A stretch of 64,000 nucleotides of DNA, from contig CAWDVR010000004.1 in the NCBI GenBank assembly GCA_963805975.1, positions 288,001 through 352,000 on the forward strand. Direction: 5' to 3'. This DNA comes from an uncultured Acidobacteriota bacterium. GTDB lineage: Bacteria > Acidobacteriota > Thermoanaerobaculia > Multivoradales > SZUA-115. Of this stretch, positions 10,732 through 16,917 are shown piece by piece (the stretch's first letter is position 1; each line of letters begins with the position of its first letter). The notes beneath the pieces were generated by a model. The model saw only the letters and a list, made by a program, of their open reading frames with translations, made no database searches and was not told the origin of the DNA. The translations under genes and the position numbers were made by a program.

Positions 10732-10769
10732 CCGGCCGGGATGATACCCCGCGGGTTTGAGCTACCGGC

Positions 10770-10971
10770 GCCTTGGGACCCGATCCCTCGAACCGGTGCT
10801 CGACGCCCCCTTTGGGTAACGCTGCGCACCGGTTCGAGGGACCGGGTCCCAAGGCTGAGCCCAACCGTCGAGCCCTGGCTTCGGGTGCCTCTGACCTGGC
10901 GCGCAGCGTTACCCAAAGGGGGCGTCGAGCGCCAGGTCAGAGGCACCCAAAGCTAGGGCCACACCAACCGT
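10770..10971. repeat. Pair of long hairpin elements sharing an identical 26-nt core in opposite orientation
   Basis: Arms 10770-10799/10826-10855 (30 bp, 1 mismatch) and 10872-10902/10929-10959 (31 bp, 2 mismatches). Cores 10800-10825 and 10903-10928 are exact reverse complements. Each hairpin is followed by CCAACCGT. Confidence 0.92.
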
Positions 10972-10993
10972 TTGCTATGGTTCCTCGATCGCC

Positions 10994-15572: not shown

Positions 15573-15662
15573 GGAGGGGTGGCTGAGCGGTCGAAAGCAG
15601 CGGTCTTGAAAACCGCCGGCGGTTTACCCCGCCCGTGGGTTCGAATCCCACCCCCTCCGCCA
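15573..15662 (+). tRNA. tRNA-Ser (anticodon UGA)
   Basis: GGAGGGG/CCCCTCC acceptor stem, anticodon arm GCGGT-CTTGAAA-ACCGC, long variable arm, GGTTCGAATCC, encoded CCA. Confidence 0.96.
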
Positions 15663-15705
15663 AGTCCACCAGCGCTATCATTGAGTCCGGCAGGGGCCGA
15701 CATCG

Positions 15706-16269
15706 ATGGCTGTGCTCGAATCCATAGAACGCCGGCGCTTCAGCGTCGAGGAAGTCGAGCGGATGCTCGAAGCCGGGATCCTCTTGGAGGACGAGTCCGT
15801 CGAGCTCCTGGAGGGAGATCTCGTCGTCATGTCGCCCCAGAACCCGCAGCATGCGACCGGAACCGAGACCATTGCCCGGCTGCTCGAAGAGGTGTACGGA
15901 GCTACGGTGCATGCCCGGCGCCATTCGCCAATCTTTGCGGCGAACGACAGCCTGCCGGAGCCTGATGTCGCCATCTATCGGGGCCAACCGAGGGACTATC
16001 GGGATCGACATCCCACGGGGAAGGAGGCTCTCCTGATCGTAGAGATCTCTTCCTCGTCGCGAAGGATCGATCGCCACAAGGCGACGATCTACGCCAAGGC
16101 GGGGGTGCCGACGTACTGGTTGTTGGACCTCGTTGCCGTGCGCCTGGAGGTCCGTTCCGGGCCGCAGGCGGACGGCCTCTACGAGCTGACGCGAGTCCTC
16201 GGGAGGAACGACGAGGTCGAGGTGCCCGGAACCGAGGCCAAGCTCAGCGTGGCCTCCTTGCTTCCGTAG
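15706..16269 (+). CDS. Uma2 family endonuclease
   Basis: RRFSVEE, VELLEG, PEPDVAI, LIVEISSSS, YAKAGVPTYWLLDL. Confidence 0.9.
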   Translation: MAVLESIERRRFSVEEVERMLEAGILLEDESVELLEGDLVVMSPQNPQHATGTETIARLLEEVYGATVHARRHSPIFAANDSLPEPDVAIYRGQPRDYRDRHPTGKEALLIVEISSSSRRIDRHKATIYAKAGVPTYWLLDLVAVRLEVRSGPQADGLYELTRVLGRNDEVEVPGTEAKLSVASLLP

Positions 16270-16273
16270 CGGG

Positions 16274-16669
16274 TCAGCCCAGAAGCTTCACTTCGAGCGG
16301 CGTGGCGAGAGTGCCCGCTGCGCCGGCGAGCTGCCGGTCGAAGGTGGCGAACCGATCCGCCGGTCCGCTGGACGCCAGGTGGAGGGCATCGGCGAAATCG
16401 AGCCCGGTTGAGAACAAGCGCAGGGCACGCACGACCGCAGTACGATCCTCGATCTCGATGCGGCGGTTTCCCAGCAAGCTGCGAAGGGCATTCGCAATCG
16501 TTTCGACCGAGAGCTGGTACGAATAGCGCAGCACCCACTCCAGCTCCAGCAGCACGGTCTTCGAGAGCCAGAGCCGGTCGGACTCCATGAGCTCGACCGC
16601 CTGTGTTGCCTGCTGCGGATCGTCGAGCGTGATCACCCGGACGAGGACGTTGGTGTCGAGAGCAATCAC
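16274..16669 (-). CDS. vapC: PIN-domain (VapC) toxin
   Basis: IALDTNVLVR, VLLELEWVL, DFADALH, FATFDR. GTG start overlaps the antitoxin stop. Confidence 0.9.
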   Translation of the reverse strand: MIALDTNVLVRVITLDDPQQATQAVELMESDRLWLSKTVLLELEWVLRYSYQLSVETIANALRSLLGNRRIEIEDRTAVVRALRLFSTGLDFADALHLASSGPADRFATFDRQLAGAAGTLATPLEVKLLG

Positions 16670-16917
16670 CGGCTCTCGCGGGCACCGCGAGCGATGGCGG
16701 CTTCCATGTCCTCGAGGCTCCGGCGTGGCCCGGTGTAGCCGGCACTGCCCAGGAGGTCGCGCACCGTGGTCTCGGGAAACTCGTCTTCGGCCAACCGGAT
16801 CACCAACTGTCCACCCTGCTCCTGGATGCTCAGCTCGCTTCCCGGACCCCAACCCAGATGATCGCGTAGATCCTTGGGGATGATGAGCTGGCCCTTGGTG
16901 GAGAGTCGTGTGGTCAT
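16666..16917 (-). CDS. AbrB/MazE/SpoVT-family antitoxin
   Basis: MTTRLSTKGQLIIPKDLRDHLGW swapped-hairpin motif, directly upstream of the PIN gene. Confidence 0.9.
   Translation of the reverse strand: MTTRLSTKGQLIIPKDLRDHLGWGPGSELSIQEQGGQLVIRLAEDEFPETTVRDLLGSAGYTGPRRSLEDMEAAIARGARESR

Follow-up and report, generated by a model that had tools for sequence, protein, structure and literature searches.

REPINs and the GTAG and CGTC REPs, as set out in the main text of their published descriptions, are non-autonomous, extragenic long hairpins in which a variable stem carries compensatory changes (PMC3116915, PMC3733652). REPINs keep their ends and vary in the middle, and the main text of one of these papers names no known transposase for the CGTC REPs (PMC3733652). 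Bacterial MITEs, including ERIC/IRU, are described as intergenic long stem-loops of ~100 bp for which both empty and filled sites are found (PMC2229807, PMC3184786), and insertion sequences that target REPs are known from the main text of the second account (PMC3184786). BRE, as its main text presents it, is an intergenic repeat of ~90-110 bp and unclear mobility (PMC3110155); CIR, likewise intergenic and of ~90-110 bp, is built from two arms and a linker and carries GANTC sites (PMC2229807). Template switching at inverted repeats is described as homogenising the arms and inverting the spacer, with all-or-none, multi-base arm conversion in either direction and spacer inversion between long perfect arms (PMC8604942).

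We analysed a window of 64,000 nucleotides (the whole stretch under study) from an uncultured Acidobacteriota bacterium whose 5.36-Mb, 96% complete genome is referred to here as G000, with contigs C1 to C6. It was compared with a genome of the same genus (G001), with further relatives (G004, G006 and G027) and with contigs from four metagenome runs in three studies (X1 to X4), X1 and X2 being independent short-read contigs. Genes and ORFs were called with our own hexamer model. Between two divergent genes of the window, a 420-aa ORF and a YfhO-family gene, lie two hairpins, HP1 and HP2, which are copies of an apparently undescribed small DNA repeat family; no published description of it was found in a literature search that covered mostly papers outside subscription. 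The features of the locus, in window coordinates, are as follows.

10741 to 10746, minus strand: host -10-like hexamer of the leftward gene, outside the element; recognised by eye, with no full sigma-70 match, and kept in the empty allele of G001.
10770 to 10855, plus strand: HP1, a copy of family A; 30-nt arms, 97% complementary, around a conserved core.
10800 to 10825, plus strand: conserved 26-nt core of HP1, with the apex variant TTT/AAA.
10856 to 10871, no strand: 16-nt spacer with the first CCAACCGT (10861-10868), likely a duplicate of host DNA.
10872 to 10959, minus strand: HP2, a copy of family A; 31-nt arms, 94% complementary, with the core reversed relative to HP1.
10903 to 10928, minus strand: conserved core of HP2, the exact reverse complement of the HP1 core.
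10964 to 10971, plus strand: second CCAACCGT; the AACCGT within it is native DNA that empty alleles have as well (joint 10759 to 10966).
10973 to 10981, plus strand: host extended -10-like motif of the rightward YfhO-family gene, outside the element; recognised by eye and kept in the empty allele.

These coordinates bear out the earlier note, which had described hairpins of 86 and 88 nt, 16 nt apart, with cores that are exact reverse complements of one another. It had also put the likeness of the arms at about 21 of 31 positions with all of some ten differences mirrored in the partner arm, which is nearly so: the left arms of HP1 and HP2 are alike in 20 of 31 columns and differ in 11 (35%), and ten of these 11 differences, including a 1-nt indel, are mirrored. 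The core matches the window twice, 100 shuffles gave no match, and the region of the doublet folds with z = -12.2 as DNA and -12.9 as RNA. Pairing of the two cores with each other, raised in the note as an alternative, is not the favoured fold, since its energy of -68.1 kcal/mol falls 17 kcal/mol short of the -84.8 kcal/mol reached when the two hairpins fold separately. The note's remark that no transposase or recombinase lies nearby agrees with our finding that none of the transposase or recombinase families searched for has a match inside the window. Elsewhere in the window (15573-16917), a tRNA-Ser is followed by ORFs that resemble, by eye, a Uma2-type nuclease and a PIN/AbrB toxin-antitoxin pair.

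At up to five mismatches, the core has 22 matches in the 5.36 Mb of G000. An HMM seeded on core copies brings the family to 47 copies, after removal of a weak, armless 48th match, and by core type these are 24 A, 21 B and 2 C. The earlier note's proposal, an unannotated palindromic element that is non-autonomous and whose core is conserved while its arms vary, is thus borne out at 47 dispersed loci. In the 43 copies whose stem is clear, the hairpin measures 67-107 nt, with a median of 87. Between copies, the cores share a median identity of 91% and the arms of 52%, and the closest pair of copies is 89% alike; the lack of any near-identical pair gives no sign of very recent movement. Within a copy, however, the arms are 96% paired: the stems contain 28 mismatches and 9 gaps beside 946 Watson-Crick pairs, and the arm-arm alignment score has a median of 20 within copies versus 6 between copies (95th percentile 9).

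The GCGCAGC mini-hairpin that the earlier note placed at the core edge is kept in subfamily A and replaced by GCGCAGG in B. What is conserved is instead an apical C-G(N1-2)A-G loop on the minus strand, where each of the 44 copies parsed has A as the last apical base and 39 of them fit G(N1-2)A; the TTT/AAA apex occurs, among A copies, in HP1 and HP2 only. One A copy and one B copy have nearly equal arms (2 differences in 22) around cores that differ at 8 of 33 positions, which indicates that cores and arms can reassort. Of 45 A/B copies, 17 have CGAG at 23-27 nt outward from the core, a weak motif chosen post hoc. Other hairpins with conserved loops and self-complementary arms, outside types A, B and C, were seen in G000 at C1:1044986-1045059, C1:240205 and C1:624358-624484.

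The copies lie in 22 tandem, 14 divergent and 3 convergent gaps, versus 671, 422 and 102 for background intergenic regions, and 7 of the 47 overlap our own ORF calls. Unlike this family, two REP families in G000 favour convergent gaps; ordinary REPINs, with conserved arms and variable loops, are also present in this genome. An intrinsic terminator was considered as the identity of the hairpins and rejected, as they have no U-tract and 19 of the 47 copies lie between divergent genes.

Like REPs and REPINs, this family consists of dispersed, extragenic long hairpins with compensatory changes, and like the CGTC REPs it has no known transposase. Whereas REPINs conserve their ends, it keeps the apex and frees the outer stem. 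As far as the main texts describe REPs, it further differs from them in having no terminal GTAG or CGTC tag, no RAYT in G000 or G001 and no convergent bias. The stem ends share no dinucleotide or tag, and CGTC is confined to the minus strand of the A core and is absent from B. Compared with MITEs as presented in the text of those papers, A and B have no conserved terminal inverted repeat, TA end or target duplication, and no arm ends matching an insertion sequence were found at the DDE, IS5 and IS110 loci examined. Identity with BRE was rejected, since two words of the core have 0 matches in the BRE sequences (PMC3110155). In comparison with integron attC sites, the outer ends of the hairpins vary and the copies are solitary. 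The family works like a REPIN or MITE yet lacks their defining tag, conserved ends, RAYT and target duplication; the main-text descriptions set it apart, and the supplements of the REP and REPIN papers may list relatives.

The manner in which the arms change is recorded in the copies themselves. In 27 close pairs of copies, 147 of 159 differences in the left arm are mirrored on the right. In B copies, an imperfect CTC/CTC segment of the stem is unconverted in three cases (C3_946, C1_900 and the G006 copy), overwritten on the right arm in four (C1_13, G001_C49, C3_72 and C1_955) and overwritten on the left arm in five (G001_C13b, C2_88, C3_37, C3_833 and C5_486). Each of these conversions spans three bases and is all-or-none. 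Such conversion in both directions points to template switching, and it is likely, judging from these sequence patterns, that the arms are kept paired by DNA polymerase using one arm as the template for the other, much as the earlier note had supposed. HP1 and HP2 are two of the three copies that our own test scored as perfected flush to the core, and a fourth is visible separately; the innermost core is perfected in none of the 47. The cases in the main text of the template-switching report (PMC8604942) are isolated inverted repeats, not a force shaping a dispersed mobile family, and their inverted spacers measure 2-5 nt versus 26 nt in the doublet.

The repeat unit comes and goes between close relatives. 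At the site of the doublet, the flanking genes of G001 are adjacent, with 23 nt between matches as opposed to 217, and the site is also empty in X1 to X4, three of these contigs having 18 other letters in place of 10760-10965. Both host -10-like boxes and AACCGT are present in the empty allele, so the first CCAACCGT appears to be a duplicate of host DNA. The earlier note had read CCAACCGT (at 10861 and 10964, where it is indeed found) as a motif of the element, which does not hold: the AACCGT part is native and no direct repeat is family-wide. A second site, C1:1319043, is empty in G001, and a third, C1:915846, is empty in X1 and X2, which brings the orthologous presence/absence differences to three loci; of the four site comparisons with G001, two (L001 and L003) are not syntenic and yielded no result. 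X1 carries at a different locus an 87-nt near-copy of the C1:915846 element with the same arms, indicating that core and arms move together. This near-copy and the site comparisons rule out arms derived from target DNA. No target-site duplication, end motif or fixed end was found family-wide, and just 2 of 43 copies have direct repeats of at least 8 nt, which lie at no constant position. The ends therefore do not settle insertion versus precise deletion in the relatives, and the empty alleles are too diverged to place the ends of the element exactly.

The searches for an enzyme that moves the hairpins returned no locus flanked by the core. PF01797 (Y1/RAYT) has no match in G000 or G001, and the core lies within 1.5 kb of none of the 20 PF01797 loci of G004, G006 and G027. 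Neither the IS110, reverse transcriptase, DDE and IS5 loci examined nor the seven DUF559 loci are flanked by it. A GIY-YIG enzyme was rejected as the mover, the one ORF found (638 aa) having no flanking core. Pfam searches of 67 of the 95 candidate ORFs neighbouring copies gave no transposase and one DUF559. At five of the seven DUF559 loci, the genes (L407, L408, L411-L413) are flanked by REPINs of the CCCTCACCC type, which makes DUF559 a candidate mover of that REPIN family. Two reverse transcriptase genes (G000:C4:585407 and C2:648089; L325 and L328) have no core motif near them; one lies ~4 kb from the end of the C4 island described below.

Outside G000, the A pattern is present in contigs X1 and X2 and absent from the 40 relatives searched. 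B-type copies number five in G001 and one in G006, four of the five matches in G027 are of a variant type, and a strict pattern is found in 1 of 400 other genomes of the class. In metagenomes, an initial pattern had 0 matches; of 63 stretches recovered, ~20 are chance coding matches by eye, and eight of nine G027-type copies have their own complementary arms. Viral contigs matched neither the core pattern nor the integrase described below, and a BLAST search of the doublet against plasmids gave chance matches only. A scan of a genome collection returned at least 118 stretches, mostly chance coding matches; among the matches listed, ~14 loci appear structured by eye and none has long perfect arms. 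Also among the matches listed, TGCGGTGCTCGA-hairpin-CTGCGCTCC lies within longer imperfect hairpins of Bacillota, Burkholderiaceae, an alphaproteobacterium and Patescibacteria, and in plasmid repeats. The same module occurs in metagenome contigs of 31-36% GC within ribosomal-protein/gat operons, and in contigs that look haloarchaeal by their gene content. As the motif was the criterion by which these distant matches were chosen, they attest to the spread of the module and not to common descent of whole elements.

Several of these loci have features of their own. L243-L245, L253, L262 and L281, in the 31-36% GC contigs with ribosomal-protein/gat operons, combine a GC-rich core motif with variable AT-rich arms. 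Partial core modules form tandem arrays in GC-rich metagenome contigs (L234, L239, L246, L255, L261, L268 and L288), of which L234 resembles a fold-back contig. In Paraburkholderia and Xanthomonas (L064/L065, L071, L075/L076, L105 and L167), the core motif lies in direct repeats ~2.8 kb apart, upstream of plasmid-type gene cassettes; these presumably resemble the single-strand promoter repeats of leading regions.

A second family, D (L395-L397, L414-L433), consists of ~140-bp hairpins that are MITE-like and have copy-specific terminal arms, with three intact and several split copies in G000 and 20 pattern matches in G001; no cognate transposase was found at the loci examined. D and the E. coli rpsB-tsf element share, by eye, the apical layout GGAGC(T/G)TAC-loop-GTA(A/C)GTGA. 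We take the rpsB-tsf element to be ERIC, a 127-bp element. An HMM and a sequence-only model (a covariance model without base pairs) built from the long relatives gave no match to it.

We favour, with a probability of about 0.62, the reading that the hairpins are copies of a non-coding, non-autonomous DNA repeat of ~70-105 bp whose imperfect tip is read by a putative mobilising enzyme, while the stem is free to vary and is re-paired by template switching. Loops of the G(N1-2)A type are stable in single-stranded DNA, and recognition would be of the minus strand in its folded form, its G(N1-2)A loop being sheared. Copying would be limited to elements whose tip is intact, which would conserve the core through selection on the element and not on the host. 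Ancestral stems would have had internal loops, which template switching erased in either direction, and drift together with re-pairing would have made the arms specific to each copy.

Among other explanations, A and B may be worn-down, immobile derivatives of a longer MITE-like hairpin, represented by D and by related hairpins from other phyla, whose terminal inverted repeats formerly allowed a DDE transposase to move it; the perfect, variable arms would then be products of decay. The D copies of G001 are conserved, imperfect hairpins of ~130 nt whose 11-17-bp terminal arms often start with GAGC, D shares CGCAGCGT(T)AC with the A core, and the core motif lies inside longer hairpins in distant taxa. 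The CGAG outside the A/B core (the post-hoc motif) and the lack of near-identical copies fit decay as well. This account is nonetheless unlikely, because the DDE and IS5 loci examined have no cognate transposase ends, there is no target duplication, and A units are polymorphic relative to a 95%-identical relative. This polymorphism and the 87-nt unit with the same arms at a second locus indicate movement, or else precise loss, of the short form itself.

We consider it quite improbable that the hairpin is a structured RNA, with a cUNCGg-capped core and a long stem, that modulates transcripts or is cut by a double-strand RNase and is selected by the host. The RNA fold has the strongly negative z-score given above, the covariation score of 0.206 is not reached in any of 500 shuffles, and the plus strand of the commonest apices has the sequence cUNCGg, consistent with an RNA tetraloop. 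However, the copying of DNA palindromes yields covariation likewise, and nine 4-nt apices (TGGC, TGCC, TGAC) as well as TTT/TAA break the UNCG pattern while keeping a DNA-type loop on the other strand. There is no G.U bias: G.T mismatches number 9 on the core strand and 14 on the other, and this strand symmetry favours DNA over RNA. Nor do the hairpins show a U-tract or convergent enrichment, and their presence and absence among close relatives also counts against a host RNA. An Rfam search gave no family at the gathering threshold, generic hairpin matches below it and one tRNA. Thus, the hairpin family most likely acts as DNA and not as RNA.

The repeats also serve as sites for integrated islands. 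In one A copy on C4 (G000:C4:566.7-581.1 kb, L023), with arms matching at 26 of 27 positions, the core is split by a 14-kb island flanked by an 11-bp direct repeat and carrying genes for a P4-like integrase, a relaxase, NikA and an LRR-Roc-COR-TIR protein. The last, of 1495 aa (L023:12325-16812), is cargo of this island. A second A copy, on C2 (16.2-19.9 kb, L024; arms 31/33), is split inside the core by a 3.6-kb island that lacks an integrase and is flanked by a 7-bp direct repeat. By eye, its genes (L024:16411-19455) are of MarR, methyltransferase, ArsR/ArsC and aquaporin types and are arsenic-related. With the site split by an island, direct repeats at the junctions and an empty site that can be rebuilt, these two copies would qualify as attB sites. 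Further repeat-inserted integrases and satellite islands lie at the following sites.

G000: C5 end/C2 start; C6:6.8-9.5 kb; C3:36.4 kb; C2:90.3-154.4 kb.
G001: L345, L348, L354, L357, L406.

Seven sister integrases of G000 and G001 (~70-85% identical) lie in D copies or in a REP family. Eight integrases, all in palindromic repeats, form one clade with support of 100/99, in a tree that omits L376, L390, L392, L337, L341, L351, L371, L373, L380, L382 and L393; a ninth, outside the tree, lies in another REP family. The sister pair of this clade and most of its deeper relatives are at tRNA halves, the target labels having been given by eye from the upstream DNA. As in the P4-like islands (Arm-DNA-bind_3 plus Phage_integrase) known from tRNA genes, these islands have that integrase architecture and short direct repeats at their junctions. 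Whereas P4-like islands sit in tRNA genes, the G000/G001 clade sits in multi-copy palindromic repeats (A, D and two REP families), and a lineage of tyrosine integrases appears, from these positions and the tree, to insert into such repeats instead of tRNA genes. No paper on tyrosine integrases that target repeats was found in the literature covered, again mostly papers outside subscription.

Given two A copies split inside the core and a single clade of integrases in palindromic repeats, this resident clade might itself be what mainly keeps and spreads the core as a many-copy attB, the hairpins being minimal elements or scars. That is very improbable in our judgement. D and two unrelated REP families are likewise targets of the clade, the hairpin ends lack the GCATGC-N5-GCATGC motif found at the island ends, and G027 has hairpins and no match to the integrase at E ≤ 1e-40. 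The use of several repeat families and the G027 hairpins without a match to the integrase make the integrases look like users of the repeats and not their makers. Assembly fold-back or chance palindromes have next to no probability and are excluded at the level of the family, for although no sequencing run with the exact doublet allele was found, the asymmetric core is conserved at 47 loci, members occur in other genomes, the short-read contigs X1 and X2 have the core with self-complementary arms, and orthologous sites are empty.

Returning to the mobile DNA repeat that we favour, the origin of the doublet may be sketched as follows. A tandem duplication and a core flip are suggested by the recurrence of CCAACCGT in direct orientation after 103 nt, by the TTT apex common to both hairpins and by their similar arms: a 103-nt unit including host DNA ending in CCAACCGT would have been duplicated in tandem, one core would then have been inverted between its arms, and the two now-inverted cores may later have been homogenised. 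Inversion of the core between the arms, which the earlier note had also raised, is the simplest reading of the doublet, though no second flipped copy was seen. An inverted duplication is disfavoured because it would mirror the flank, and the flank is not mirrored. X1 lacks both hairpins, yet its flanking genes are ~95% identical. Combined with the 35% difference between the arms of HP1 and HP2, this weakens the tandem-duplication step, and either two related copies were inserted separately or the arms change unusually fast. That doublets recur is hinted at by a degenerate half copy lying 103 nt away from a different A copy (C2:636.7 kb).

In a broader and tentative form, which we regard as possible but doubtful, the conserved tip TGCTCGA-hairpin-CTGCGC would be the module by which an unrecognised class of mobile hairpins is recognised as single-stranded DNA, in this lineage, in Bacillota, in Proteobacteria and probably in haloarchaea. 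Their mover would need neither terminal repeats nor a RAYT, their stems would be rewritten by template switching, and a lineage of tRNA-targeting integrases would have switched to these hairpins and to other palindromic repeats as docking sites with many copies.

The family offers a clean natural record of template switching, in which the same imperfect stem has been perfected from left to right or from right to left. It also carries a warning for screens for non-coding RNA, in that strong covariation in a stem can come from the copying of DNA alone. The short invariant DNA module may serve as bait for the enzyme behind palindromic repeats without a transposase, such as the CGTC REPs and ERIC-like elements, a question that has long been open. 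Targeting of repeats would explain how islands gain access to many sites in one genome, and the matched integrases with tRNA and repeat targets make the evolution of a target switch testable.
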